Origin: a virus
Lineage: Duplodnaviria > Heunggongvirae > Uroviricota > Caudoviricetes
Direction: 5' to 3' (one strand)
IMG/VR virus record: IMGVR_UViG_2547132281_000002
Location: 1-25,592 of that record
DNA: 25,592 nt
Shown piece after piece: positions 1,886 to 24,174 of the stretch (position 1 is its first letter; each line of letters opens with the position of its first letter). The notes under the pieces are model-generated. The model saw nothing but the letters and a program-made list of their open reading frames with translations. It ran no database searches and was not told the DNA's origin. The translations under genes were made by a program, and so were the position numbers.

Positions 1886-2328
1886 TCGAATCTGATTTCC
1901 AGTTCCGGAAAACGCCGCTGCACCGACAGGGGGATCCCGTCGAGAATACTGGCAATTTCACCTGCGATCCGCGACAGCACGAAAGTACAGAATGCGGTTT
2001 CCACCACTTCAGCGGAGTCTCTGGCATTTTTCAGCTCCTGTGCGTCGGCCTGCGCACGCGTAAGTCGATGGCGTTCGTACTCAATAGTCCCTGGCTGGAG
2101 ATCTGTCTCGCTGGCCTGCCGCAGTTCTTCAACTTCCCGGCGCAGCTTTTCGTTCTCAATTTCAGCATCCCTTTCGGCATACCATCTTATAACGGCGGCA
2201 GAGTCATAAAGCACCTCATTACCCTTGCCACCGCCTCGCAGAACGGGCATTCCCTGTTCCTGCCAGTTCTGAATGGTACGGATACTCGCACCGAAAATGT
2301 CAGCCAGCTGCTTTTTGTTGACTTCCAT
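1882..2328 (-). pseudogene. nu1: Terminase small subunit Nu1, truncated at about codon 144 (DLP12 nohD-like remnant)
   Basis: MEVNKKQLADIFGASIRTIQNWQEQGMPVLRGGGKGNEVLYDSA... matches lambda Nu1 up to ...RFPELE, then diverges and stops. Lambda Nu1 is 181 aa from memory. Confidence 0.85.
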
Positions 2329-2329
2329 T

Positions 2330-2560
2330 GTTCATCCCACGGCCAAAAACAGAGAAAGGAAACGACAGAGGCCCAAAAGCTCGTTTTCAGCACCTGTCGT
2401 TTCCTTTCTTTTCAGGGGGTATTTTAAATAAAAACATTAAGTTACGACGAAGAAGAACGGAAATACCTTAAACCGGAAAATTTTCATAAATAGCGAAAAC
2501 CCGCGAGGTCGCCGCCCCGTAACCTGTCGGATCGCCGGAAAGGACCCGCAAAATGATAAT
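2330..2560 (-). other. cos: cos region: cosN 12-nt cohesive-end sequence at 2506-2517, with cosB between cosN and Nu1
   Basis: The minus strand reads ...GTTACGGGGCGGCGACCTCGCGGGTTTTCGCTATTTATGAAAATTTTCCGG..., which is the lambda right-end/left-end junction as recalled (GGGCGGCGACCT overhang). Confidence 0.8.
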
Positions 2561-2716
2561 AATTATCATCTACATGTCACAACGTGCATCTACGCCATCA
2601 AACCACGTCAAATAATCAATTATGACGCAGGTATCGTATTAATTGATCCGCATCAACTTAACGTAAAAACAACTTCAGACAATACAAATCAGCGACACTG
2701 AATACGGGGCAACCTC

Positions 2717-2911
2717 ATGTCAACGAAGAACAGAACCCGCAGAACAACAACCCGCAACATCCGCTTTCCTAACCAAATGATTGAACAAATTAACATCGCT
2801 CTTGATCAAAAAGGGTCCGGGAATTTCTCAGCCTGGGTCATTGAAGCCTGCCGTCGGAGGCTAACGTCAGAAAAGATAGCATATACATCAATTAAAAGTG
2901 ATGAAGAATGA
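2717..2911 (+). CDS. ylcI: Small ribbon-helix-helix-like protein, DLP12 YlcI-like (DUF3950), 64 aa
   Basis: MSTKNRTRRTTTRNIRFPNQMIEQINIALDQKG.... Position just past cos corresponds to the lambda right-end small ORF. Confidence 0.7.
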   Translation: MSTKNRTRRTTTRNIRFPNQMIEQINIALDQKGSGNFSAWVIEACRRRLTSEKIAYTSIKSDEE

Positions 2912-3075
2912 ACATCCCGCGTTCTTCCCTCCGAACAGGACGATATTGTAAATTCACTTAATTACGAGGGCATTGCAGTAATTGAGTTGCAGTTTTACCA
3001 CTTTCCTGACAGTGACAGACTGCGTGTTGGCTCTGTCACAGGTTAAGTAGTTTGAATGATTAGCAGTTATGGTGA

Positions 3076-3282
3076 TCAGTCAACCACCAGGGAATAATCC
3101 TTCATATTATTATCGTGCTTCACCAACGCTGCCTCAATTGCCCTGAATGCTTCCAGAGACACCTTATGTTCTATACATGCAATTACAACATCAGGGTAAC
3201 TCATAGAAATGGTGCTATTAAGCATATTTTTTACACGAATCAGATCCACGGAGGGATCATCAGCAGATTGTTCTTTATTCAT
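3076..3282 (-). CDS. ybcW: DLP12 YbcW-like small protein, 68 aa
   Basis: [40 protein letters not shown].... AT-rich, convergent with ylcI. Recalled from the K-12 DLP12 gene set. Confidence 0.6.
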
Positions 3283-3567
3283 TTTGTCGCTCCATGCGCT
3301 TGCTCTTCATCTAGCGGTTAAAATATTACTTCAAATCTTTCTGTATGAAGATTTGAGCACGTTGGCCTTACATACATCTGTCGGTTGTATTTCCCTCCAG
3401 AATGCCAGCAGGACCGCACTTTGTTACACAACCAATACTATTAATTGAAAACATTCCTAATATTTGACATAAATCATCAACAAAACACAAAGAGGTCAGA
3501 CCAGATTGAAACGATAAAAACGATAATGCAAACTACGCGCCCTCGTATCACATGGAAGGTTTTACCA

Positions 3568-3978
3568 ATGGCTCAGGTTGCCATTTTTAAAGAAATATTC
3601 GATCAAGTGCGAAAAGATTTAAACTGTGAATTGTTTTATTCTGAACTAAAACGTCACAATGTCTCACATTATATTTACTATCTAGCCACAGATAATATTC
3701 ACATTGTGTTAGAAAACGATAACACTGTGTTAATAAAAGGACTTAAAAAGGTTGTAAATGTTAAATTCTCAAGAAATACGCATCTTATAGAAACGTCCTT
3801 TGATAGGTTGAAATCAAGAGAAATCACATTTCAGCAATACAGGGAAAATCTTGCTAAAGCAGGAGTTTTCCGATGGGTTACAAATATCCACGAACATAAA
3901 AGATATTACTATACCTTTGATAATTCATTACTATTTACTGAGAGCATTCAGAACACTACACAAATCTTTCCACGCTAA
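3568..3978 (+). CDS. ybcV: DUF1398-family protein, DLP12 YbcV-like, 136 aa from an internal ATG
   Basis: ...[58 protein letters not shown].... The ORF track extends it to 3445; I chose the ATG at 3568 to match the recalled YbcV length. Confidence 0.65.
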
Positions 3979-4268
3979 ATCATAACGTCCGGTTTCTTCC
4001 GTGTCAGCACCGGGGCGTTGGCATAATGCAATACGTGTACGCGCTAAACCCTGTGTGCATCGTTTTTAATTATTCCCGGACACTCCCGCAGAGAAGTTCC
4101 CCGTCAGGGCTGTGGACATAGTTAATCCGGGAATACAATGACGATTCATCGCACCTGACATACATTAATAAATATTAACAATATGAAATTTCAACTCATT
4201 GTTTAGGGTTTGTTTAATTTTCTACACATACGATTCTGCGAACTTCAAAAAGCATCGGGAATAACACC

Positions 4269-4562
4269 ATGAAAAAAATGCTACTCGCTACTGCGCTGGC
4301 CCTGCTTATTACAGGATGTGCTCAACAGACGTTTACTGTTCAAAACAAACAGACAGCAGTAGCACCAAAGGAAACCATCACCCATCATTTCTTCGTTTCT
4401 GGAATTGGGCAGAAGAAAACTGTCGATGCAGCCAAAATTTGTGGCGGCGCAGAAAATGTTGTTAAAACAGAAACCCAGCAAACATTCGTAAATGGATTGC
4501 TCGGTTTTATTACTTTAGGCATTTATACTCCGCTGGAAGCGCGTGTGTATTGCTCAAAATAA
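4269..4562 (+). CDS. bor: Bor lipoprotein (serum-resistance lysogenic-conversion protein), 97 aa
   Basis: MKKMLLATALALLITGCAQQTFTVQNK... with lipobox LITGC, matching lambda Bor from memory. Sits opposite Rz as in lambda. Confidence 0.9.
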   Translation: MKKMLLATALALLITGCAQQTFTVQNKQTAVAPKETITHHFFVSGIGQKKTVDAAKICGGAENVVKTETQQTFVNGLLGFITLGIYTPLEARVYCSK

Positions 4563-4593
4563 TTGCATGAGTTGCCCATCGATATGGTCAGCT

Positions 4594-5055
4594 CTATCTG
4601 CACTGCTCATTAATATACTTCTGGGTTCCTTCCAGTTGTTTTTGCATAGTGATCAGCCTCTCTCTGAGGGTGAAATAATCCCGTTCAGCGGTGTCTGCCA
4701 GTCGGGGGGAGGCTGCATTATCCACGCCGGAGGCCGTGGTGGCTTCACGCACTGACTGACAGACTGCTTTGATGTGCAACCGACGACGACCAGCGGCAAC
4801 ATCATCACGCAGAGCATCATTTTCAGCTTTCGCATCAGCTAACTCCTTCGTGTATTTTGCATCGAGCGCAGCAACATCACGCTGACGCATCTGCATGTCA
4901 GTAATTGCCGCGTTCGCTAGCTTCAGTTCTCTGGCATTTTTGTCGCGCTGGGCTTTGTAGGCGATTGCGTTATCACGGTAATGATTGACCGCCCATGACA
5001 GGCTGACGATGATGCAGATAATCAGAGCGGATATAATCGCGGTTACTCTGCTCAC
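4594..5055 (-). CDS. Rz: Spanin inner-membrane subunit Rz, 153 aa, GTG start
   Basis: (V/M)[67 protein letters not shown]... matches lambda Rz from memory. Confidence 0.9.
4653..4835 (-). CDS. Rz1: Spanin outer-membrane lipoprotein Rz1, embedded in the +1 frame of Rz, 60 aa
   Basis: [60 protein letters not shown] with lipobox VVGC and a proline-rich tail, matching lambda Rz1. Confidence 0.85.
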
Positions 5056-5549
5056 TGTTGCCCCCACAAACAGACTTCACGCTCAATCTCACGACGAGTC
5101 ATCAGGCCTTTCCATTGCTTACCGCCAGCGTATGTCCAGCGACGCAGCTGATCACATGCGCCTTTGATATCGCCCTGGTTTATTTTGCGAAGAAGCGTCG
5201 ATGTTCTAAAATTGCCAGCACCCACATTGTAAACGAATGAGTAAAGAGCGCCGCGCGTTGTTTCCGGTATATCGACTTTGATATACGGGTTAATTTGTCT
5301 GGCGACAGTGGCAAGGTCTTTATTCAAGAGTGCTTTGCATTCTGCTTTGGTATACGTTTTACCGAGCATGATGTCTTTTCCGGTGTGTCCGTGACATACA
5401 GTCCATACACCAACAATATCTTTGTATGGTATGTAGCTGACACCTTCCAGACCATCGTTACCACTTGGGCCAGTGATTAACACTGATGCTATAGCAATTG
5501 CTCCGCCACCAATAGCAGCAGCAACGGCTTTTCGTAATGATGGAGGCAT
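5052..5549 (-). CDS. R: SAR endolysin (phage 21 R-like lysozyme, DLP12 RrrD-like), 165 aa
   Basis: [44 protein letters not shown]... has an N-terminal Gly/Ala-rich signal-anchor-release segment followed by a lysozyme domain. Confidence 0.9.
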
Positions 5550-5764
5550 TATTCACCTCTCGCAGCCTTGCGCTTATCTTCTTTAATCTTGAAATAAAGG
5601 TTTGTCAGGTACGTCAGCAGGCCAAATACCAGGCTACCCAGCACACCTATTGCTGCCCACTGTGAGGGCGTGACTTTATCGAGCAGCTGTAAAAACCAGT
5701 AACCGGCACTACCTGCTGAGGTGCCATAGGCGACACCCGTTGTTAACTTATCCATGGATTTCAT
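5549..5764 (-). CDS. S: Pinholin, phage 21 S-like (DLP12 EssD-like), 71 aa, dual-start MKSMDK motif
   Basis: [71 protein letters not shown]. Stop overlaps the R start (TAATG). Confidence 0.85.
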
Positions 5765-6352
5765 AACCCCACCTCGCAGACAAAGCGGGTGTAAATTGAG
5801 GGAATACAACGTATCGCAAAAAAGCAGAAACGTAACAGACTCGGAGTCAGTGAATAACTCAGGTATTGAGTTATCAGCTAATATCGAGACTCAAAAAATG
5901 GAAAAACCAGCTCGACGGCGGGTTTAAGCTGTGTGACGAAGTAACCACTCTTAACAGCATAACCAATTTTTTACGTACGTAAACCACTGAATGATATTTA
6001 TGAGAATGCTACCGAGTGTTCAAAACTCCACCACAAATACATAAGAAAACCTCAACAAATAACCAATAAATAATTTCAGACGTTATTTTTAGTTGATTTA
6101 AATTAAACTGCCGAATTATAGAACCCCCATAAATAACAGCCATTAATATAAATTAGCTAATAGGTTTATTTTTGTTCAAATAAGAGCCATAAATAGGTTT
6201 CGATAGAAAAAGTTCAGATAAAAATAGAGATCTACTTCACAAATTAAATGAGAAACTAAAACTTACATCTTGAAATAATCACATTGATTAGATGAATATT
6301 TATCGCGCAGTGACATCATTTTTTAATAATAGTTCAAAAAAAAGGGCTCACG

Positions 6353-7435
6353 ATGAAAAAATTAACAGTGGCAATTTCTGCTGTAGCTGCATCAGTACTG
6401 ATGGCGATGTCTGCTCAGGCAGCTGAAATTTATAATAAAGACAGTAACAAGCTGGATCTGTACGGGAAAGTTAATGCTAAGCACTACTTCTCCTCTAATG
6501 ATGCAGATGATGGTGATACTACTTATGCCCGTCTTGGCTTCAAAGGTGAAACCCAAATCAACGATCAACTGACTGGTTTCGGTCAGTGGGAATATGAATT
6601 CAAAGGCAACCGCGCTGAATCTCAAGGTTCCTCCAAAGACAAAACCCGTCTTGCATTTGCAGGCCTGAAATTCGGTGACTACGGCTCAATCGATTACGGC
6701 CGTAACTACGGTGTAGCATACGACATCGGTGCGTGGACTGACGTTCTGCCAGAATTCGGTGGCGATACCTGGACCCAAACAGATGTATTCATGACTGGTC
6801 GCACCACAGGTGTTGCAACTTATCGTAACAACGACTTCTTTGGTCTGGTTGATGGCCTGAACTTTGCAGCTCAGTATCAGGGCAAAAATGACCGAAATGA
6901 AGTAACTGAAGCTAATGGCGATGGTTTCGGTTTCTCAACTACTTATGAGTATGAAGGATTCGGCGTGGGTGCAACCTATGCTAAATCTGATCGCACTAAT
7001 AATCAGGTTATCTACGGTAACAACGGTCTGAATGCTTCTGGTCAAAATGCTGAAGTATGGGCAGCTGGTCTGAAATATGATGCGAACAACATCTATCTGG
7101 CCACCACCTATTCTGAAACCCAGAACATGACTGTTTTTGGTAATAACCATATTGCCAACAAAGCACAAAACTTCGAAGCTGTTGCACAATATCAGTTCGA
7201 CTTCGGCCTGCGTCCATCCGTTGCTTACCTGCATTCTAAAGGAAAAGACTTGGGTGTTTGGGGTGATCAGGACCTGGTTGAATATGTTGATGTAGGTGCA
7301 ACCTATTACTTCAACAAAAATATGTCCACTTTTGTTGACTACAAAATCAACCTGATTGATAAGAGCGATTTCACGAAAGCATCTGGCGTTGCTACCGATG
7401 ATATCGTTGCTGTAGGTATGGTTTACCAGTTCTAA
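6353..7435 (+). CDS. nmpC: Outer-membrane general porin, NmpC/OmpD/Lc family, apparently intact, 360 aa
   Basis: [23 protein letters not shown] signal peptide, then [17 protein letters not shown]... and a C-terminal ...VAVGMVYQF. Lies between Q and the lysis genes on the opposite strand, as in DLP12. Confidence 0.85.
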
Positions 7436-7444
7436 TTTGATTAC

Positions 7445-7620
7445 TAAAAGATATGTTGTGGGAGGCTTTGCCTCCCCAACATATAAGTGGCTCCCTCAAG
7501 CCACTTCCTTTAGAAGCACAACCTTGCTTCTAACTATACAAACCTTCTGTTATATATTACCCTTTATTTTTGGGGGCGTTTCAACGCCCCATTTTTAATA
7601 ACTTTTAGTAAATAATTGGC
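7445..7620 (-). promoter_or_regulatory. Candidate late promoter (pR'-like), Q-utilisation region and tR'-like hairpin downstream of the Q gene
   Basis: On the minus strand a TTGAAA -35-like hexamer with AT-rich -10 candidates lies about 40-70 nt past the Q stop. It is followed by hairpins (aagtggct/agccactt; gggaggc/gcctccc) and then tctttt. Position is analogous to lambda pR'/qut/tR'. Exact elements not resolved. Confidence 0.35.
7572..7598 (+). terminator. Rho-independent terminator downstream of the porin gene
   Basis: Stem ggggcgtt (7573-7580) pairs with aacgcccc (7583-7590) and is followed by attttt. Confidence 0.6.
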
Positions 7621-7623
7621 GTA

Positions 7624-8007
7624 TTAATTAGAGTTATTAACAACGATATCCATCTCTAACCGGATATCTAATGCCATTAACATCCCTTCAATTATGCCCT
7701 CAGCCTTCTGTAACCTTTTCCCGATATAACCATCAGAGCAGCAATGCTTACCTGCCAGTGACATGAATGTCATACCGACTACATAATAATCTACTAATAA
7801 ATCGTGCAAATCGCTGTTGTTCTTTTTCAGACGGGCCATGCACCCGCAAATGATCATCGCGTCATCGTCACAACATTGCGGGCGAGATTTTACTTTTGAA
7901 GTAATTAATCCCTTAAAACCGGCGGCAATGGACGACCAGGTCACATCTTCATGATTATTAGCCGCCCACGCTCCCCAACGCTCAAGAACCATCTGAATAT
8001 CACGCAT
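7624..8007 (-). CDS. quuD: Late-gene antiterminator Q (DLP12 QuuD-like), 127 aa
   Basis: [62 protein letters not shown].... Last gene of the nin-Q block. An alternative upstream ATG lies at 8022. Confidence 0.8.
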
Positions 8008-8092
8008 CAACTTACTCCACAAAAATCAGACCAGAACGCCAATTACAAGCAAAAATCAACGAAACAGTATTAGTTGATTGTTATCTCTGACT

Positions 8093-8215
8093 TCATACTC
8101 CTGCTCCTGTCAGGGTTTTGGCGTAATTCTTCAGTATTCGGTAATCGGTCAAAACAGAACCGGGGAAACGATATAAGCGCAGACGCCCCCAGCGGTGGCG
8201 AAGACGTTCTGCCAT
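8093..8215 (-). CDS. ylcG: Small protein YlcG-like, 40 aa, below the ORF-track length cutoff
   Basis: Manual translation gives MAERLRHRWGRLRLYRFPGSVLTDYRILKNYAKTLTGAGV. Sits between rusA and Q as in DLP12. Confidence 0.5.
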   Translation of the reverse strand: MAERLRHRWGRLRLYRFPGSVLTDYRILKNYAKTLTGAGV

Positions 8216-8229
8216 ATAAAACTCAAACA

Positions 8230-8592
8230 TCATTCATTCCCCATTTCGGTGATGGTCAGTTCCAGCCTCCCACCTTTGGTAACAGGCATCTTCACAACGC
8301 GGTAATCAACGACCTGAGCATCATCCAGCCAGAAACCTGCTTTAGTGAGTGCGTCAAAAGCGGCTTTTTGCAGATTATCCAGGTCACGGCGACGGCGATC
8401 CGGCATGTGGCACTCAATGCGGATTTTCACAGGCATAGCCAGGCCGATATCCAGCATTGCGTTTTTAATGATTCGGGCGACGTTATCGCGGTATGCCTGC
8501 CCCTCTGCGCTGACGTGCGTGCGCCCGCGATTATGGCGGTAATAGCGATTATTGCTCGGAGGCCAGGGTAATGTGATGCTGTAGGTATTCAC
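8230..8592 (-). CDS. rusA: Holliday-junction resolvase RusA, 120 aa
   Basis: [43 protein letters not shown]... matches RusA from memory. Confidence 0.9.
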
Positions 8593-8879
8593 GCCTTAAT
8601 AACCCCCTCTTTCAGCCAGATAACCTGTGTTCTCGCCATACCTTCCAGCGCGCATTCTTTTGCATATGCAGCATCGACAAAATGTGTGCGGCGGTCGATT
8701 TCGTCGTGGCAGGCAGAACATGCAATGGTGGCAATCAGGTCTGGCGGTTTGGTACCGGTGCCGCACAATCCAGTCAGCCGGATATGTGCCAGTACAGACG
8801 TTTCAGGGTTGCCATTACATACGCCAGGGATTCTTACCTGGCATTCCCGACTACGCGCTGCTTTTCTCAAATCAGCCAT
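8589..8879 (-). CDS. ybcO: YbcO-like nuclease (DUF1364, Cys-rich), 96 aa
   Basis: [64 protein letters not shown].... Overlaps the rusA start (ATGA). Confidence 0.8.
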
Positions 8880-10937: not shown

Positions 10938-12464
10938 TCAAAAATAAACCTCACCATCAACCATATATTTGAGAGTACTTATCGCCTGCTGGGCGGATAT
11001 TGTTTTCATTAAAGGATAGTGTTTAAAAACAATGCCATTCATAAAATAGATATCACAGGTTTTATTATCTGTATTGATTATGATTTTTTCGAATGTTTTA
11101 TAGGCAAGTGTACGACATAGCTCTCGCCCATTTTTACTGTTTAAGTCAATAGCATGAAAATCACCAAGTGAACTCACCGCTTTACTCTTCAAAGTTTTTA
11201 ATGATACAGAAGCCCTTCGTAATTCCTTATCTAATACTCTGATTTTTTCTGCTATAGCGGTAACTTCAGGCGCAACAGATAATGCAGCAATTAAATTATT
11301 AATTTTCATCTGGAGCTCAATAATTTTCAACTCTAAAGTTTCATTAGCATCTTTCTTGTTTTCAACTGGTTGGATTTTACTACAATTAAAAAGCAACTCA
11401 TTAATGATATTATAATCAACCAAATCTCTCTTTATTGATGGCCTGTCACATCGATGCAGTCTTCTCATCGGACAAACATAATAGCCATGCAAACTTCCAG
11501 ATACCGCATGAACAATCATGGTATTACCACAAGCCTCGCACTTCATAACTGTTCGAAGTAGATTTATCAACATAGGATTTTTGCTACTATTGCTAATACC
11601 AAAAGGTGCCAACCGAATTTCCTGTACAGCGTAAAACAAATCATCTGATATGACTCTGGGATAATAGCCAGCGATTTCACTTATTCCTTTACCTCTTGCA
11701 CGATATGAAGGTACGCATATACCTATCAGAGCTTTATTCGCTAATAATTTTTCAATTACAGAAGGTCCCCATGCACTTTCTTTTCCTGAGAAATTCTTTA
11801 CAGCATGATCATTTAAATACTTGGCTATTGCATTCAATGAGCGCCTTTCCATCCTGAGTTTAAAAATTAGCTCAATAGTTTTCACCCTGTCGGGGTCTGG
11901 AACAAAAGCCGTTCTTTTGTCATCTAAGGAGAGCCATCTCGGACAAGACGCCGTCATAATCGTACCTGATTCCAGTGCATCCTGCCGTTTTTTCTTCCAT
12001 GATAATTTAACCCGACTTGACTTTATCTCGCTTTCTTCATTTGCCCTTTGTGCTATAAGTATGGCTTTTATTAATGAATATGGCTCATTCAAAGAGTCAA
12101 TATTATAGACTGTATTGTCGCAAAGAGTTATAACATCAATACCGTGATTCAAAATCAATTTCAGACGTTCAATCGCTTCACCGACTTTTTCTCTTGAAAG
12201 TCTGTCCAGACTTTCAACTAACAATGTAGTTCCTGGCAATATATAACCATGCTCTATAGCATCTAAAAATTCCGAAAAAGCTCCTGATTGTGCATGCTTT
12301 CCTTTGAATGCACTTAATCCTAAATCTTCATATGTTATGGTATCAAGATAATAATCACTATTTACCTTTAACCATTCAGCAATAAGTCTTCTCTGTCGGT
12401 TTAATGAGTCGCCAGACATCTGACCTGGTGATGAAAATCGCATATATGCTATGGCTTTTTTCAT
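10938..12464 (-). CDS. ybcK: Large serine recombinase (DLP12 YbcK-like), 508 aa
   Basis: N-terminal resolvase-like MKKAIAYMRFSSPGQMSGDSLNRQRRLIAEW... with catalytic Ser in the YxRxSS context. Central recombinase region, a Cys-rich zinc-ribbon-like stretch (CEACGN...CPMRRLHRC) and a coiled-coil tail. Strongly AT-rich. Confidence 0.85.
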   Translation of the reverse strand: MKKAIAYMRFSSPGQMSGDSLNRQRRLIAEWLKVNSDYYLDTITYEDLGLSAFKGKHAQSGAFSEFLDAIEHGYILPGTTLLVESLDRLSREKVGEAIERLKLILNHGIDVITLCDNTVYNIDSLNEPYSLIKAILIAQRANEESEIKSSRVKLSWKKKRQDALESGTIMTASCPRWLSLDDKRTAFVPDPDRVKTIELIFKLRMERRSLNAIAKYLNDHAVKNFSGKESAWGPSVIEKLLANKALIGICVPSYRARGKGISEIAGYYPRVISDDLFYAVQEIRLAPFGISNSSKNPMLINLLRTVMKCEACGNTMIVHAVSGSLHGYYVCPMRRLHRCDRPSIKRDLVDYNIINELLFNCSKIQPVENKKDANETLELKIIELQMKINNLIAALSVAPEVTAIAEKIRVLDKELRRASVSLKTLKSKAVSSLGDFHAIDLNSKNGRELCRTLAYKTFEKIIINTDNKTCDIYFMNGIVFKHYPLMKTISAQQAISTLKYMVDGEVYF

Positions 12465-12720: not shown

Positions 12721-13053
12721 TTAATGTGGTGTGCTTCGTGACAATAAATTAATAACCAACACACCGGCACAAATCAACATCATGCCTATAATGGCTGGCA
12801 GGTCCAGCCGTTGGCCGAAAAGTCCCCATGACAGTAAGCTAATCAGGACAATACCGACTCCTGACCAGATAGCATAAGCAATCCCTGTAGGAATATAAGC
12901 CAGCGTCTGAGCTAATAACCAGAATGATGCACAATAACAAATAATTGTACCAACAGATGGCCATAACCGTGTAAAACCTTCTGAAAACTTCATTAAGGTT
13001 GTACCAATGACCTCTGCAAGTATTGCACCACCAAGATAAATATAAGGGTTCAT
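12721..13053 (-). CDS. emrE: Small multidrug resistance (SMR) efflux transporter EmrE, 110 aa
   Basis: MNPYIYLGGAILAEVIGTTLMKFSEGFTRLWPSVGTIICYCASFWLLAQTLAYIPTGIAYAIWSGVGIVLISLLSWG... matches EmrE from memory, including the conserved membrane Glu in the first helix. Confidence 0.9.
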   Translation of the reverse strand: MNPYIYLGGAILAEVIGTTLMKFSEGFTRLWPSVGTIICYCASFWLLAQTLAYIPTGIAYAIWSGVGIVLISLLSWGLFGQRLDLPAIIGMMLICAGVLVINLLSRSTPH

Positions 13054-16077: not shown

Positions 16078-16767
16078 ATGAAAACAACACTCTCAGAAAG
16101 ACTTAAAGAAGCCAGATTAGCGCGAGGCCTTACACAAAAGGCGCTTGGGGATTTGGTCGGGGTTAGCCAGGCTGCTATTCAGAAAATCGAAACAGGGAAA
16201 GCTAATCAAACAACTAAAATCGTGGAGATCGCGAACGCTTTGGGTGTGCGCGCAGAATGGTTATCTTCTGGCGTTGGAAATATGTCAGACAGTACAGTGC
16301 AACCAATACAATCAACTGTCAGCCATTCCAAATACTTCAAGATTGACGTTCTTGATATAGAAGTCAGTGCTGGGCCGGGAGTCATCAACCGTGAGTTTGT
16401 AGAAGTTCTACGCTCGGTTGAGTACTCGTTTGACGATGCTCGTCACATGTTCGATGGTAGGAAGGCGGAAAATATCCGCATCATTAACGTGCGTGGTGAC
16501 AGCATGTCAGGAACGATCGAACCAGGTGATCTGCTGTTCGTTGATATCACAGTTAAATCTTTCGACGGTGATGGTATCTATGCGTTTCTGTACGACGACA
16601 CAGCCCATGTAAAGCGCCTGCAAATGATGAAGGATAAGCTGCTGGTCATCTCTGATAACAAAAGCTACTCACCGTGGGACCCGATCGAGAAAGACGAGAT
16701 GAACCGGGTGTTCATCTTCGGTAAGGTTATTGGGAGCATGCCGCAGACATATAGGAAGCATGGGTAG
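16078..16767 (+). CDS. cI: CI-type prophage repressor: N-terminal HTH (XRE) plus C-terminal LexA-like S24 autopeptidase, 229 aa from the internal ATG
   Basis: MKTTLSERLKEARLARGLTQKALGDLVGVSQAAIQKIETGK... (HTH), then ...INVRGDSMSGTIEPGDLLFVD...HVKRLQ... (Ser/Lys dyad motifs). The ORF track's upstream start at 16012 overlaps the operators. Confidence 0.85.
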   Translation: MKTTLSERLKEARLARGLTQKALGDLVGVSQAAIQKIETGKANQTTKIVEIANALGVRAEWLSSGVGNMSDSTVQPIQSTVSHSKYFKIDVLDIEVSAGPGVINREFVEVLRSVEYSFDDARHMFDGRKAENIRIINVRGDSMSGTIEPGDLLFVDITVKSFDGDGIYAFLYDDTAHVKRLQMMKDKLLVISDNKSYSPWDPIEKDEMNRVFIFGKVIGSMPQTYRKHG

Positions 16768-16888
16768 TACCAATTAAAAATTATCAACTGGGCATTGTGC
16801 TCATTCAGTAAAGAACTAATTCCTATCTTTGCTCTAGGTAGTAATATTAAGCCACCGCAATAATATCTTTACCTAACGGCGTAAGAAT

Positions 16889-16915
16889 CCCGGTCACCGT
16901 GCCGGGTTTTCTTTT
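16889..16915 (+). terminator. Rho-independent terminator after cI
   Basis: Stem cccgg ... ccggg followed by ttttcttttg. Confidence 0.5.
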
Positions 16916-17039
16916 GCCCTCCCCTCATCACACACACCGTTAAAAAAACCACCATAACCTCGCTTCAGTTATCGCTATGCGATTCAAGTCACAAAATAAA
17001 TCCATCCTAAATACAACCAGTTATATCTAAAACAACCAA

Positions 17040-17100
17040 TAAAACAACTTTTGTTGTTGACGATAAAACAACTATAGTTTTAAATAAGTTCATCGCAACA
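17040..17100 (+). promoter_or_regulatory. Candidate pL/oL: promoter-like hexamers with operator-like ACAAC/GTTGT repeats
   Basis: ...aaaacaaccaataaaacaacttttgttgTTGACGataaaacaactatagttttaaataag... shares half-site motifs with the cI-cro intergenic region. Confidence 0.4.
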
Positions 17101-17362
17101 ACACAACGATACGGCAACTACCTGATTCACCGTTGCGATGACCGCTTAGATCCGCAGTTTGAATTTCAGCAGGCTTCGGGGAGTGCGAGGGGTGAAACGG
17201 ACGCGTGAACGTCGGTGTGACCAGCTGAAATTAACTCAACATTTCATACCTCAGTCGCTTCAACGAGGCGGCTTAGTTATGACAACCGGCGGCCATCCAC
17301 CGCCTGAATATGCGCAGAAGTCTCTATATGTTCAGCAGCCCAGCTTACGGGCAGGAGTTTTT

Positions 17363-17569
17363 ATGGTTCATCAACATTACGGAACACAGACCGTTAATCG
17401 CGGCGCGGTCATGCCAGGAATGCTGGTCAAACACAAAGATGGTACCTGGACTGCATCAGCTAATTTACGCGGACGGCTTTATCTGCATCGCGGCATCGAG
17501 CGCACTTATACCAGTGATTTGCTCGTGGAAGTTTTTCTCGACGGACGCGGTAACGGCCTGAATCACTAA
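17363..17569 (+). CDS. kil: Kil-like host cell-division inhibitor (Rac KilR-like), 68 aa
   Basis: MVHQHYGTQTVNRGAVMPGMLVKHKDGTWTASANLRGRLYLHRGIERTYTSDLLVEVFLDGRGNGLNH. AGGAG lies 6 nt before the ATG. The pattern HxxGT...PG..V.H..G....ASAN...VFL..G matches my recollection of KilR. It is the first gene of the leftward operon, immediately upstream of gam. Confidence 0.5.
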   Translation: MVHQHYGTQTVNRGAVMPGMLVKHKDGTWTASANLRGRLYLHRGIERTYTSDLLVEVFLDGRGNGLNH

Positions 17570-20143: not shown

Positions 20144-20365
20144 ATGGCAGACATCATTGATTCAGCATCAGAAATTGAAGAATTACAGCGCAACACAGCA
20201 ATAAAAATGCGCCGCCTGAACCACCAGACTATATCTGCCACTCATTGTTGTGAGTGTGGCGATCCGATAGATGAACGAAGACGCCTGGTCGTTCAGGGTT
20301 GTCGGACTTGTGCAAGTTGCCAGGAAGATCTGGAGCTTATCAGTAAACAGAGAGGTTCGAAGTGA
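20144..20365 (+). CDS. TraR/DksA-family C4 zinc-finger protein, 73 aa
   Basis: MADIIDSASEIEELQRNTAIKMRRLNHQTISATHCCECGDPIDERRRLVVQGCRTCASCQEDLELISKQRGSK has a coiled N-terminus and a CxxC-N17-CxxC finger. Confidence 0.75.
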   Translation: MADIIDSASEIEELQRNTAIKMRRLNHQTISATHCCECGDPIDERRRLVVQGCRTCASCQEDLELISKQRGSK

Positions 20366-20664
20366 GCGAAATTAACTCTCAGGCACTGCGTGAAGCGGCA
20401 GAGCAGGCAATGCATGACGACTGGGGATTTGACGCAGACCTTTTCCATGAATTGGTAACACCATCGATTGTGCTGGAACTGCTGGATGAGCGGGAAAGAA
20501 ACCAGCAATACATCAAACGCCGCGACCAGGAGAACGAGGAAATTGCGCTAACGGTAGGAAAGCTGCGCGTTGAGCTGGAAGCAGCAAAATCAAAACTCAA
20601 CGAGCAGCGTGAATATTACGAAGGTGTTATCTCGGATGGAAGTAAGCGTATTGCTGAACTGTAG
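20362..20664 (+). CDS. Ead/Ea22-like protein, 100 aa, GTG start overlapping the upstream stop
   Basis: (V/M)SEINSQALREAAEQAMHDDWGFDADLFHELVTPSIVLELLDERERNQQYIKRRDQENEEIALTVGKLRVELEAAKSKLNEQREYYEG..., recalled as similar to the Ea22-like proteins of lambdoid and Stx phages. Confidence 0.65.
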   Translation: MSEINSQALREAAEQAMHDDWGFDADLFHELVTPSIVLELLDERERNQQYIKRRDQENEEIALTVGKLRVELEAAKSKLNEQREYYEGVISDGSKRIAEL

Positions 20665-20914
20665 GCCTAGGTTGAGTGTACAAGATTTGCATACGTAAGA
20701 GCAAAAGACAAGGGAGAATTGATCAGAGTTATTACCTGCCAACCAACGGGATATTACGCTTACGTACCATGTAACTAGGAATCCTTGAAGTGGCAGCCTA
20801 ACTGTGGATACACTGAAATGGCGATTTGGTAACATGTTTCGCACAAGGCTGTTACTACGCTTAGAGATAATCAGTCATGATTAAATGCTTTGTAAAAAGT
20901 AAAAGGAAATTACA

Positions 20915-21529
20915 ATGAAAAAATCAACACTAATTTTAGGGCTTACGTTAATTGTCTCATCTCAAATACCATCGGCAATGGCAAAAAATGAATCAAAACT
21001 TTGGGTTGTTGTTGATCGAACGGAAAGACATACCTGCCCTTCAAGTAAATGTGGAGTGGCTGGGAAACTATTTTTCAGGGAAGGCGTAGATTTTCTAGAA
21101 AAAAAAGGTGAATGGGTTCGTATAACTGAGCCATATTCAGCCTCATGTGTGGGAGGGGAAAGCGAATATATTAAAGAAGGTAATAAATCCTGCACAAGAA
21201 AAAACGGAATCGTTAATGGCAAGTTTTCAGAATGGGTTAAACTTAGTGATCTTAGCAGTGAAAGGCCACCAGATCCTGCTGAAAATGCGAGCAGAAATGA
21301 TACCTTAATCAAAGGATCTGATGACTACCGTATATACAAAAAAGAGTTTTCTTCGGCAGCTAGGAAGTTAATAAGTGAAGGTGTCTGCACGGAGAGCGAT
21401 TTTAAGGAAGTTGGAGGGTGGATGGCATCAAGCAATAAGGGTGAAAACATCTATTTCACATATTGCGGAGGAATGACGTTGTCGAACAGAATATATCTAG
21501 ACGTTAAAAGTGGAAAGACTTTTAGATAA
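20915..21529 (+). CDS. Uncharacterised secreted/periplasmic Cys-rich protein, 204 aa (moron)
   Basis: Signal peptide MKKSTLILGLTLIVSSQIPSAMA with predicted cleavage before KNES. At least eight Cys in the mature part and no lipobox. AT-rich, with a good RBS (AAAAGGAAA). No family recognised. Confidence 0.6.
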   Translation: MKKSTLILGLTLIVSSQIPSAMAKNESKLWVVVDRTERHTCPSSKCGVAGKLFFREGVDFLEKKGEWVRITEPYSASCVGGESEYIKEGNKSCTRKNGIVNGKFSEWVKLSDLSSERPPDPAENASRNDTLIKGSDDYRIYKKEFSSAARKLISEGVCTESDFKEVGGWMASSNKGENIYFTYCGGMTLSNRIYLDVKSGKTFR

Positions 21530-21822
21530 TATGATATTACCAATGACAGCATTAATTTAATGCCTCCATAGAATTATCTCTAGGAAGTAAGTATAAGAAA
21601 AGTCCGCACAATGAGCTGCTGCGGGCTTTGTGTTATTCGCCATATTTTATGAAGCAAATACGACACTATAGATAATTAAGCGTTACTGGTTGTCGATTCC
21701 TCACTCATTCCTGCTGATGGCTGTCTTCTTGTATGTGTCATTGAAGGGTAATATCGCGTAAAAAGATACCGGAAGTATCCGCGCCGCCATGATTGTCTTT
21801 CTCCTGATGCAGGAAAAGCAGA

Positions 21823-22161
21823 ATGACTAAATCAGCAGCAGAGCGCAAAGCCGATCAGAGAGCCAAGCAAGCATCATCCGGTATGCGTAAGCTGGAGCTT
21901 GTACTTGATGCTCAGGAAATTGAAATGCTGGAGCGTAACTGAGCCACGCGCCGCTTCAGGCGTGCGCCTTACGAGTTTGGTGAGTACATAGCGTTACTGA
22001 GCCGCCAGGATGATGCACGTGTGCGCTGGCGTATAAAATCGATTAGCAGAAAACGTTGCCGTAAGTGCGGCGAGAGAGTTCCTGTTAATTCATGCCCGTG
22101 TAATGGTGACTCACAATACTGGGTGACCAAAGGCTGGCACGAAACAAAATTAATGATATAA
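21823..22161 (+). pseudogene. 112-codon zinc-ribbon ORF interrupted by one in-frame TGA at codon 40 (21940-21942)
   Basis: MTKSAAERKADQRAKQASSGMRKLELVLDAQEIEMLERN-[TGA]-ATRRFRRAPYEFGEYIALLSRQDDARVRWRIKSISRKRCRKCGERVPVNSCPCNGDSQYWVTKGWHETKLMI. Both halves are in the same frame. Confidence 0.4.
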
Positions 22162-22165
22162 ATCT

Positions 22166-22181
22166 CTGTGACATGTCACGG
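22166..22181. promoter_or_regulatory. Perfect 12-bp palindrome GTGACATGTCAC (within CTGTGACATGTCACGG) immediately upstream of the RBS of the 142-aa gene
   Basis: Palindrome at 22168-22179, GGAGG at 22180-22184, ATG at 22190. The CTG-N10-CGG arrangement is one mismatch from a LexA-box core CTG-N10-CAG. Confidence 0.3.
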
Positions 22182-22189
22182 AGGCGGCA

Positions 22190-22618
22190 ATGAAATTAGA
22201 CCAGCAATATCTAAAAGATCTACTTATCGCATTCGAAAAAACTTATGGCCCTGACACGATGCTTAGTGAACTAGAGGATAATGGCTTTAATAGATATGAC
22301 CAAAATTTTATTTTCCATATGCGATTATTATGTGACTACGAATTAATAGTTAGGGTTGATGGAAAACCTGGGTTCGGTCATATAATGTCCAACGAGTTAG
22401 GGGAAGGTGTTGAATATAGTTGGATCGAAGTACCACTGAGGTTGACAGCAAGAGGGCATGATTTTATTGCTGACTTACGTCAAAAGGAGGTCTGGCAAGC
22501 TATAAAAACAAACTTTAAGGATGAGGGGATTAGTACTCTTATGAGTGTTTCAAAATCACTAGCAAAAGGCTTTGCAAGAAAAAAAATAAAAGATATTACA
22601 GGAATAGATATTGAATAA
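22190..22618 (+). CDS. Uncharacterised 142-aa protein (AT-rich moron with its own RBS and terminator)
   Basis: MKLDQQYLKDLLIAFEKTYGPDTMLSELEDNGFNRYDQNFIFHMRLLCDYELIVRVDGKPGFGHIMSNELGEGVEYSWIEVPLRLTARGHDFIADLRQ.... Strong RBS and a downstream terminator. Family not recognised with confidence. Confidence 0.6.
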   Translation: MKLDQQYLKDLLIAFEKTYGPDTMLSELEDNGFNRYDQNFIFHMRLLCDYELIVRVDGKPGFGHIMSNELGEGVEYSWIEVPLRLTARGHDFIADLRQKEVWQAIKTNFKDEGISTLMSVSKSLAKGFARKKIKDITGIDIE

Positions 22619-22664
22619 TTCTTAGCATAAAGCAACTACTGCCTTTGGTGAAAATTATATCTGA

Positions 22665-22688
22665 ACTCGCTACGGCGAGTTTTTTTTA
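22665..22688 (+). terminator. Rho-independent terminator after the 142-aa gene
   Basis: Stem actcgc/gcgagt with loop tacg followed by tttttttt. Confidence 0.65.
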
Positions 22689-22868
22689 TGGAGATGATAA
22701 ATGCACTTCCGAGTCACAGGTGAATAGAATGGAGAACCATTCAACAGAGTTATCGAAGCCGAGAACATCAGCGACTGCTATGACCACTGGATGCTGTGGG
22801 CGCAGATAGCACATGCAGACGTAACCAATATTCGAATTGAAGAACTGAAAGAACACCAAGCCGCCTGA

Positions 22869-22890
22869 TGGCGGTTTTTTCTTGCGTGTA
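22869..22890 (+). terminator. Rho-independent terminator upstream of xis, in a lambda-derived segment
   Basis: Stem gccgcc/ggcgg with loop tgat followed by tttttt. The surrounding sequence matches the lambda region just upstream of xis from memory. Confidence 0.6.
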
Positions 22891-22907
22891 ATTGCGGAGA
22901 CTTTGCG

Positions 22908-23126
22908 ATGTACTTGACACTTCAGGAGTGGAACGCTCGCCAGCGACGCCCAAGAAGCCTTGAAACAGTTCGTCGATGGGTGCGCGAATGCAGGATATTC
23001 CCTCCTCCGGTTAAGGATGGAAGAGAATATCTGTTCCACGAATCAGCGGTAAAGGTTGACTTAAATCGACCAGTAACAGGTAGCCTTTTGAAGAGGATCA
23101 GAAATGGGAAGAAGGCGAAGTCATGA
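22908..23126 (+). CDS. xis: Excisionase Xis, 72 aa
   Basis: MYLTLQEWNARQRRPRSLETVRRWVRECRIFPPPVKDGREYLFHESAVKVDLNRPVTGSLLKRIRNGKKAKS matches lambda Xis. The 3' end overlaps the int start. Confidence 0.95.
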   Translation: MYLTLQEWNARQRRPRSLETVRRWVRECRIFPPPVKDGREYLFHESAVKVDLNRPVTGSLLKRIRNGKKAKS

Positions 23127-24174
23127 GCGCCGGGATTTACCCCCTAACCTTTATATAAGAAACAATGGATATTACTGCTACAGGGACCCAAGGACGGGTA
23201 AAGAGTTTGGATTAGGCCGAGACAGGCGAATCGCAATCACTGAAGCTATACAGGCCAACATTGAGTTATTTTCAGGACACAAACACAAGCCTCTGACAGC
23301 GAGAATCAACAGTGATAATTCCGTTACGTTACATTCATGGCTTGATCGCTACGAAAAAATCCTGGCCAGCAGAGGAATCAAGCAGAAGACACTCATAAAT
23401 TACATGAGCAAAATTAAAGCAATAAGGAGGGGTCTGCCTGATGCTCCACTTGAAGACATCACCACAAAAGAAATTGCGGCAATGCTCAATGGATACATAG
23501 ACGAGGGCAAGGCGGCGTCAGCCAAGTTAATCAGATCAACACTGAGCGATGCATTCCGAGAGGCAATAGCTGAAGGCCATATAACAACAAACCCTGTCGC
23601 TGCCACTCGCGCAGCAAAATCAGAGGTAAGGAGATCAAGACTTACGGCTGACGAATACCTGAAAATTTATCAAGCAGCAGAATCATCACCATGTTGGCTC
23701 AGACTTGCAATGGAACTGGCTGTTGTTACCGGGCAACGAGTTGGTGATTTATGCGAAATGAAGTGGTCTGATATCGTAGATGGATATCTTTATGTCGAGC
23801 AAAGCAAAACAGGCGTAAAAATTGCCATCCCAACAGCATTGCATGTTGATGCTCTCGGAATATCAATGAAGGAAACACTTGATAAATGCAAAGAGATTCT
23901 TGGCGGAGAAACCATAATTGCATCTACTCGTCGCGAACCGCTTTCATCCGGCACAGTATCAAGGTATTTTATGCGCGCACGAAAAGCATCAGGTCTTTCC
24001 TTCGAAGGGGATCCGCCTACCTTTCACGAGTTGCGCAGTTTGTCTGCAAGACTCTATGAGAAGCAGATAAGCGATAAGTTTGCTCAACATCTTCTCGGGC
24101 ATAAGTCGGACACCATGGCATCACAGTATCGTGATGACAGAGGCAGGGAGTGGGACAAAATTGAAATCAAATAA
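23104..24174 (+). CDS. int: Tyrosine integrase Int, 356 aa
   Basis: MGRRRSHERRDLPPNLYIRNNGYYCYRDPRTGKEFGLGRDRRIAITEAIQANIELFSGHK...HELRSLSARLYEKQISDKFAQHLLGHKSDTMASQYRDDRGREWDKIEIK matches lambda Int. Confidence 0.95.
   Translation: MGRRRSHERRDLPPNLYIRNNGYYCYRDPRTGKEFGLGRDRRIAITEAIQANIELFSGHKHKPLTARINSDNSVTLHSWLDRYEKILASRGIKQKTLINYMSKIKAIRRGLPDAPLEDITTKEIAAMLNGYIDEGKAASAKLIRSTLSDAFREAIAEGHITTNPVAATRAAKSEVRRSRLTADEYLKIYQAAESSPCWLRLAMELAVVTGQRVGDLCEMKWSDIVDGYLYVEQSKTGVKIAIPTALHVDALGISMKETLDKCKEILGGETIIASTRREPLSSGTVSRYFMRARKASGLSFEGDPPTFHELRSLSARLYEKQISDKFAQHLLGHKSDTMASQYRDDRGREWDKIEIK

Follow-up and report, generated by a model that had tools for sequence, protein, structure and literature searches.

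Exclusion proteins such as Llp/Cor, Sim and SieA block the receptor or the entry of DNA, some prophage-borne cargo genes are virulence factors, and lom and bor are examples of lambda-type morons or accessory genes. SH3b domains (PF08239 and relatives) are found in lysostaphin, in phage endolysins and in NlpC/P60 proteins, and Ivy is disulfide-bonded. The moron concept is said to go back to Juhala et al. 2000. Spackle of phage T4 (gp61.3) is encoded by the phage and inhibits the tail lysozyme gp5 in the periplasm (PMC7677548, PMC7650644). The protein of 204 residues described here resembles Spackle as a small phage-encoded periplasmic protein with a signal peptide that would act alone, a plausible functional analogy for exclusion at the level of the wall, and it shares with Ivy (PF08816) and MliC/PliC (PF09864) the small exported product of a stand-alone gene; lipoprotein forms occur among some inhibitors of the Ivy/MliC/PliC type and in part of the present family too. 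No similarity in sequence or fold to Ivy, MliC/PliC or T4 Spackle was found for the 204-residue protein.

The gene was analysed within a stretch of 25,592 nucleotides (positions 1 to 25,592 of the Caudoviricetes record IMGVR_UViG_2547132281_000002), which is referred to in its full length as the window. It is an exported, SH3b-bearing accessory gene of prophages and not a new kind of system. Literature searches with its accession, with phage Chlobot, with ea22/xis hotspots and with SH3b periplasmic exclusion returned no paper on the 204-residue protein.

The gene and its block in a lambdoid prophage

The open reading frame (20915-21529, + strand) starts with ATG, comprises 204 codons plus stop, and is preceded by a ribosome-binding site AAGGA (20903-20907, + strand, read from the sequence) 7 nt before the start codon. 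Its product is a 100% match of WP_000749914.1 (PHROG 8310), the 90%-identity cluster of which has 406 members, all unnamed; in the colinear E. coli AH65 record the gene is annotated as 'hypothetical protein' only. The ratio dN/dS was ~0.2 against the copies of phage Chlobot and of an IncA plasmid and ~0.1 against the E. fergusonii copy (protein 86% identical). A first search returned 80 homologues, among which full-length proteins of 204 residues, 60-68% identical, were found in Pseudomonas and Aeromonas, and an exhaustive HMM search returned 895 representative clusters at E ≤ 0.001. By these homologues, clusters and dN/dS ratios the reading frame is more than chance: it is a real gene, and purifying selection acts on it. 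An antisense reading frame of 116 aa (20962-21312) was found to be without support and was treated as spurious.

Position 4811 to the end of the window is colinear (99.7% identity) with a lambdoid prophage that E. coli AH65 carries beside ybhC, in the lambda attachment region. This prophage holds further cargo typical of DLP12-like elements (names taken from the AH65 record): an OmpC/NmpC-like porin (6353-7435, + strand), the YbcK serine recombinase (10938-12464, - strand) in a block of 32-35% GC, and the SMR efflux gene emrE (~12721-13053, - strand). In the interval of ~600 nt between the S24-type repressor and a kil-like gene (16767-17363) the AH65 record has no annotated gene; the corresponding region of phage Chlobot contains N-like, sieB and ral genes.

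Homology to lambda (98%) ends at about position 20661 inside ea22 and resumes at about 22655, just before xis. The intervening AT-rich mosaic block of ~2.0 kb (20662-22654, ~40% GC) takes the place of lambda 29334-30096, the segment with ea8.5 and the 3' part of ea22. This replacement explains the upstream Ead/Ea22-like reading frame (20362-20664; PF13935, E 3e-29), a C-terminally truncated pseudogene, and the break point at about 20661 is the left edge of the block. Besides the 204-residue gene, the block holds a pseudogene with an internal stop (21823-22161), annotated in other copies as a 'UmuD-like' or 'DNA repair protein' remnant, and an intact DUF2513 gene (22190-22618; PHROG 585, winged-helix-like); lambda-type xis (22908-23126; PF07825) and int (23104-24174) follow downstream. 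The GC content of the 204-residue gene is 38.7% (GC3 30.7%) against 45.5% for the whole window, and the composition profile has a low-GC stretch from ~20500 to 23000. The pseudogene and the DUF2513 gene accompany the 204-residue gene in all E. coli contexts that were examined; DUF2513 is absent from distant copies.

A candidate sigma-70 promoter TTGAAG-18-TACACT (20785-20814, + strand) was found in a relaxed hexamer scan; it is weak (8 of 12 positions), falls below threshold and was not picked up in the standard promoter scan. About 160 nt upstream of the gene are conserved between the E. fergusonii and E. coli copies, and both hexamers are kept with a differing spacer. Downstream, a hairpin with an interrupted T-run (21598-21640, + strand), likewise conserved between these two copies, is probably a degenerate intrinsic terminator: RNA folding of 21590-21650 gave -16 kcal/mol with a z-score of only -1.6, and the homologous position of E. 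fergusonii has a canonical terminator (GCCCGC-loop-GCGGG, then T7). We infer that the gene is expressed in the lysogen; alternatively, it may be silent there and expressed only from pL in lytic growth.

The initial annotation described the gene as an AT-rich moron between an ea22-like gene and xis. Composition and position were as described. Accessory or cargo status also stood, given that the block replaces ea8.5 and the 3' part of ea22 and that relatives occur on unrelated mobile elements. The strict label moron is partly supported: the gene belongs to a block of three reading frames and is not a single-gene insertion, the promoter matches at 8 of 12 positions, and the terminator is degenerate. 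The locus is like lambda-type morons in having AT-rich DNA between conserved lambdoid genes, a candidate promoter, a terminator and an exported product, and unlike them in being part of a 2-kb replacement block with three reading frames rather than a single inserted gene.

Export, disulfides and domain organization of the product

The predicted signal peptide (residues 1-23; 20915-20983, + strand) begins with MKK, continues with the hydrophobic run STLILGLTLIVSS and ends in PSAMA, with an A-x-A cleavage site before K, as read from the sequence; the product thus starts MKKSTLILGLTLIVSSQIPSAMA, cut before KNES. No lipobox was found on reading the signal peptide of the window protein, and residues 1-24 of the AlphaFold2 model have a pLDDT of less than 50. 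Of 153 near-full-length relatives, 135 (~88%) carry an export signal of one of three kinds: a signal peptide, a lipobox or a TM anchor. By class, a short N-terminal signal was found in 63 of the 153, a hydrophobic signal plus extension in 27, a lipobox in 26, an internal TM segment ahead of the module in 19 and none in 18; most of these 18 signal-less proteins look like truncated or mis-started gene calls, or have scores just under threshold. Some long relatives have the order cytoplasmic zinc ribbon, TM segment, module. These N-terminal classes and this order indicate that the conserved module is always extracytoplasmic, and export, as predicted from the sequence of the 204-residue protein, is well supported across the family.

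The product has six cysteines (C41, C46, C78, C93, C158 and C184; 2.9% Cys), and in an alignment of 35 sequences all six are invariant together with W30, W67, R69, W107, S135, D136, F145, Y180, F181 and G185. Among 179 aligned relatives, 145 have all six; the first four are jointly absent from 29, C41/C46 are kept without C78/C93 in 4, C78/C93 are kept without C41/C46 in 1, and C158/C184 are present in all 179. Since the cysteines are gained and lost as pairs, three disulfides are predicted (C41-C46, C78-C93 and C158-C184), and their structural role is indirectly supported. Thus the Sec signal peptide and the likely disulfide bonding of the initial annotation were supported, by a typical signal with export signals in most relatives and by six invariant cysteines that come and go as three pairs; its count of at least eight cysteines was too high, and 'Cys-rich' is generous at 2.9%. 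The protein had also been left without a family assignment, and this now applies to its C-terminal half only, the N-terminal half being assigned to SH3b.

Distant relatives in Vibrio (~30% identical, chromosomal) lie in conserved synteny, with a cluster of DsbA-like, thioredoxin and DsbD genes on one side and a secD/secF pair on the other (for example, locus L064, 2887-11331, Vibrio mediterranei; others in L060-L072). This neighbourhood is consistent with export and is not specific for it.

The AlphaFold2 model built on the family alignment has a mean pLDDT of 89.5 and is low only at residues 1-24. In this model, the N-terminal half (residues 27-112; 20993-21250, + strand) has an SH3b beta-barrel fold and includes the pairs C41/C46 and C78/C93; a loop insert of ~35 residues (about residues 70-106) holds C78 and C93. 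With Pfam SH3_3 (PF08239) the window protein scored 16 bits (E 0.014; gathering cut-off 27), a precomputed PF08239 match exists for 11 of the 80 close homologues, and longer relatives score 23-88 bits. One subfamily has a plain SH3b domain that is free of the insert and of the first four cysteines. Compared with known wall-binding SH3b domains, the window copy scores below the cut-off and has the insert and two extra predicted disulfides; compared with known SH3b proteins, its fusion partner is a small domain, not enzyme-like, instead of a hydrolase. Peptidoglycan binding may be mediated by this domain; the SH3b fold by itself does not prove it.

The second half consists of an RPxDP linker followed by a C-terminal domain (CTD; core S135-R204; 21266-21526, + strand) with C158/C184 and the motifs SDD, GGW and YFTYCGG. 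Residues ~118-204 form a separate domain of ~85 residues, which reached a pLDDT of 88 when modelled alone; its topology is alpha-alpha-beta-beta-beta, the linker leading into two helices and a three-stranded sheet. S135, D136, D137, F145, G167, G168, W169, S172, Y180, F181, Y183, N191 and Y194 are near-invariant, and the domain has no conserved His or catalytic-type residues. Without a conserved His, and with its cysteines paired to each other, the CTD is likelier to offer a binding surface than a hydrolase site; an NlpC/P60-type or other hydrolase was ruled out on the same grounds, there being no conserved His and no free Cys.

Comparison of 28 CTD members with Pfam gave scattered noise only, and a Foldseek search of viral models (BFVD) gave nothing at E ≤ 0.001. 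Matches of family profiles to de novo designed TIM barrels in a PDB sequence search (E 1e-7 to 1e-9) were rejected as an artefact, because each added up four ~8-bit matches between one helix and the repeated design unit; none contained a single significant stretch. Extracellular subdomain 2 of MapZ (PDB 2nda) and cystatin/PepSY-like alpha+beta domains gave grey-zone scores, with no sequence similarity and no evidence of homology.

Searches with a CTD profile found many proteins of ~102-106 aa that consist of a signal peptide or lipobox and the CTD only. In other relatives it is preceded by ankyrin repeats, by coiled-coil regions or by as many as three copies of SH3b; the CTD is C-terminal in every relative. 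The CTD is an autonomous module and a widespread, confidently folded extracytoplasmic domain that has neither a Pfam entry nor a structural neighbour in the libraries searched. The metagenomic protein P0243 appears to contain more than one CTD copy. On an Agrobacterium chromosome (L093, 7001-7309) a 102-aa protein of signal peptide and CTD only is encoded in a prophage-like region with many small unannotated reading frames, DUF3102 and HicAB genes.

Relatives on mobile elements and chromosomes

Of 5,426 complete E. coli genomes, 131-132 have a copy of the gene at 95-99.9% identity. A search of 50,697 phage records gave a single carrier of the 204-residue gene, phage Chlobot, where it lies in the early-left region as here. 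The block is constant in the E. coli contexts examined, which include prophages at the ybhC and torS sites, and in a decayed E. coli prophage the 204-residue gene is still intact within it. On an IncA plasmid the block lies within a prophage fragment. This plasmid (pA18-1 of Citrobacter freundii; L090) carries, at 2152-8704, a lambdoid/Rac-like fragment with genes for tail fibre assembly, trkG, a lysis gene, DUF1317, DUF1382, TraR, the 204-residue gene and DUF2513; the fragment occurs on IncA-type plasmids of several Enterobacteriaceae and adjoins Tn5403, IS5 and an ars operon.

The flanks of more distant copies (55-86% identical) are unrelated. One copy is carried by a phage-like plasmid of E. 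fergusonii with a terminase, a phage repressor and an integrase. A homologue with 63% identity is the only obvious non-mobilisation cargo of a 5310-bp ColRNAI/ColE1-type plasmid of Citrobacter braakii (NZ_CP115736.1) and has a strong consensus promoter ahead of it (TTGACA-17-TACTAT). In an Aeromonas prophage an antiterminator-like gene lies upstream of the homologue, and the locus has a holin-like gene at its edge; in integrative islands of ~6 kb in Pseudomonas it directly follows the integrase. These islands (L003, 6402-12411; L007-L010) comprise the integrase, the homologue, a KilA-N-like protein and three to four family-less proteins; searches of Pfam and PHROG with the island neighbours gave only weak matches to KilA-N and 'transcriptional regulator'. 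The L003 island abuts two pairs of pyocin S and immunity genes, and that of L007 is interrupted by a group II intron and an IS66 element.

Across 77 species-level genomes no conserved neighbour was found beyond the synteny within Vibrio. A tyrosine-recombinase gene is present within 7 kb at 7 of the 77 loci and absent from the other 70, so the wider family is largely chromosomal; the mobile part is the gammaproteobacterial clade of 204-residue proteins (60-68% identical; E. coli, Pseudomonas, Aeromonas and Citrobacter), members of which were on a mobile element in every case examined.

A possible protective role and its alternatives

Searches of collections of defence and superinfection-exclusion families gave no match: PADLOC and NCBIfam returned none, the sole match in PHROGs was 8310 ('unknown function'), and in Pfam only the weak SH3_3 match was found. 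In the explanation that we favour, the protein would be exported by Sec and cleaved to a soluble periplasmic protein of 181 residues, stabilized by the three predicted disulfides. The SH3b domain would most likely tether it to peptidoglycan, and the CTD would be the functional head, binding a protein or glycan target by way of candidate polar and aromatic residues (S135, D136, D137, S172, Y180, Y183, N191 and Y194). The protein would act alone, without a partner gene, and the gene would be accessory cargo that has been repeatedly acquired by temperate phages, plasmids and integrative islands. Given these carriers, the likeliest benefit would be that the cell wall or envelope is shielded from outside attack, either by a muralytic enzyme on the tail of a superinfecting phage or by a peptidoglycan-degrading toxin. 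As a wall-anchored binder or inhibitor, it would work like T4 Spackle or Ivy/PliC and be unrelated to them; since the CTD has no fold match to known inhibitors, 'inhibitor' is an analogy only, and we infer binding or inhibition by the CTD. That the product is an exported, wall-associated, stand-alone accessory protein is rather probable. The complete explanation, a wall-tethered periplasmic binder or inhibitor with a protective effect, is the best one available and is proposed with somewhat less than even confidence; the protective role as such, suggested by analogy, is tentative and deserves low confidence.

The serious rival is a housekeeping role in the envelope with passive carriage. The proteins would then be ordinary envelope components, either peptidoglycan-associated adaptors or modulators of the cell's own wall remodelling, and mobile elements would be their occasional carriers. 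This agrees with the 70 of 77 species-level loci that have no tyrosine recombinase nearby, on account of which a general envelope role outside conflict is equally possible, and with the chromosomal synteny of the Vibrio relatives beside Dsb and Sec genes; moreover, periplasmic ankyrin repeats, coiled coils or extra SH3b domains are present in longer relatives, as in scaffolds. We nevertheless consider it unlikely, as the gammaproteobacterial clade is borne by mobile elements in every case examined, the gene has stayed intact, with purifying selection, even where the prophage has decayed, and a 5.3-kb plasmid has no other obvious cargo, all of which argue for a selectable trait.

The weaker rivals are receptor-blocking exclusion, orphan immunity to a toxin and virulence. 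Superinfection exclusion, a function suggested in the initial annotation, by a periplasmic protein that keeps incoming phages from an outer-membrane receptor or closes their DNA-entry channel would suit an exported product encoded at accessory positions of temperate phages (early-left here and in Chlobot, near antiterminator- and holin-like genes in Aeromonas, and as the CTD-only form in Agrobacterium). It is improbable, since the protein has no similarity to known exclusion families, the window copy is neither a lipoprotein nor a membrane protein, and an SH3b tether suggests the wall, not a receptor in the outer membrane, as its target; the spread of relatives over Rhodobacterales, Vibrio, Acidobacteriota and Vampirovibrionales, with no tyrosine-recombinase gene nearby in most cases, is a poor fit to the blocking of one specific phage receptor. 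Small, periplasmic, disulfide-bonded and stand-alone, and spread on plasmids and islands, the protein has features that would be expected of an orphan immunity protein against a peptidoglycan-degrading toxin (a T6SS amidase or muramidase, colicin M or a pesticin-like bacteriocin), and one Pseudomonas island (L003) adjoins pyocin S and immunity genes, an adjacency that is probably due to chance, those genes being outside the island. No cognate toxin gene adjoins the gene in any locus, no fold match was found and, to our knowledge, known immunity proteins have no SH3b domains, which leaves this reading very improbable. A role in virulence or host interaction, with secretion past the periplasm, would have its precedent in other prophage cargo, and SH3-like domains occur in the invasion protein InlB (the match at rank 22), but it is scarcely credible: the E. 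coli hosts are commensal or environmental isolates (chicken, sediment, panda, frog), most relatives belong to free-living marine and soil bacteria, and no secretion-system genes are nearby.

Under the favoured explanation of a wall-tethered binder or inhibitor, the CTD could be the founder of a family of periplasmic effector domains not described before, with ~900 clusters at 50% identity, whose members would neutralize incoming muralytic enzymes or wall-degrading toxins from an SH3b tether and would be spread by temperate phages, plasmids and islands as a one-gene trait; in this full form the proposal is speculative and quite unlikely. If the gene proved to be without phenotype, it would be one more conserved hypothetical gene of the variable ea region. 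Whatever its function, the CTD lends itself well to structural and biochemical study. If the reading of the CTD is true, Gram-negative bacteria would have a new mechanism of exclusion or immunity that acts at the wall. If the protein alters susceptibility to phages or toxins, it would be a compact one-gene trait with a bearing on phage therapy and lysogenic conversion, and one that already moves among lambdoid phages, IncA plasmids, ColE1-type plasmids and Pseudomonas islands.
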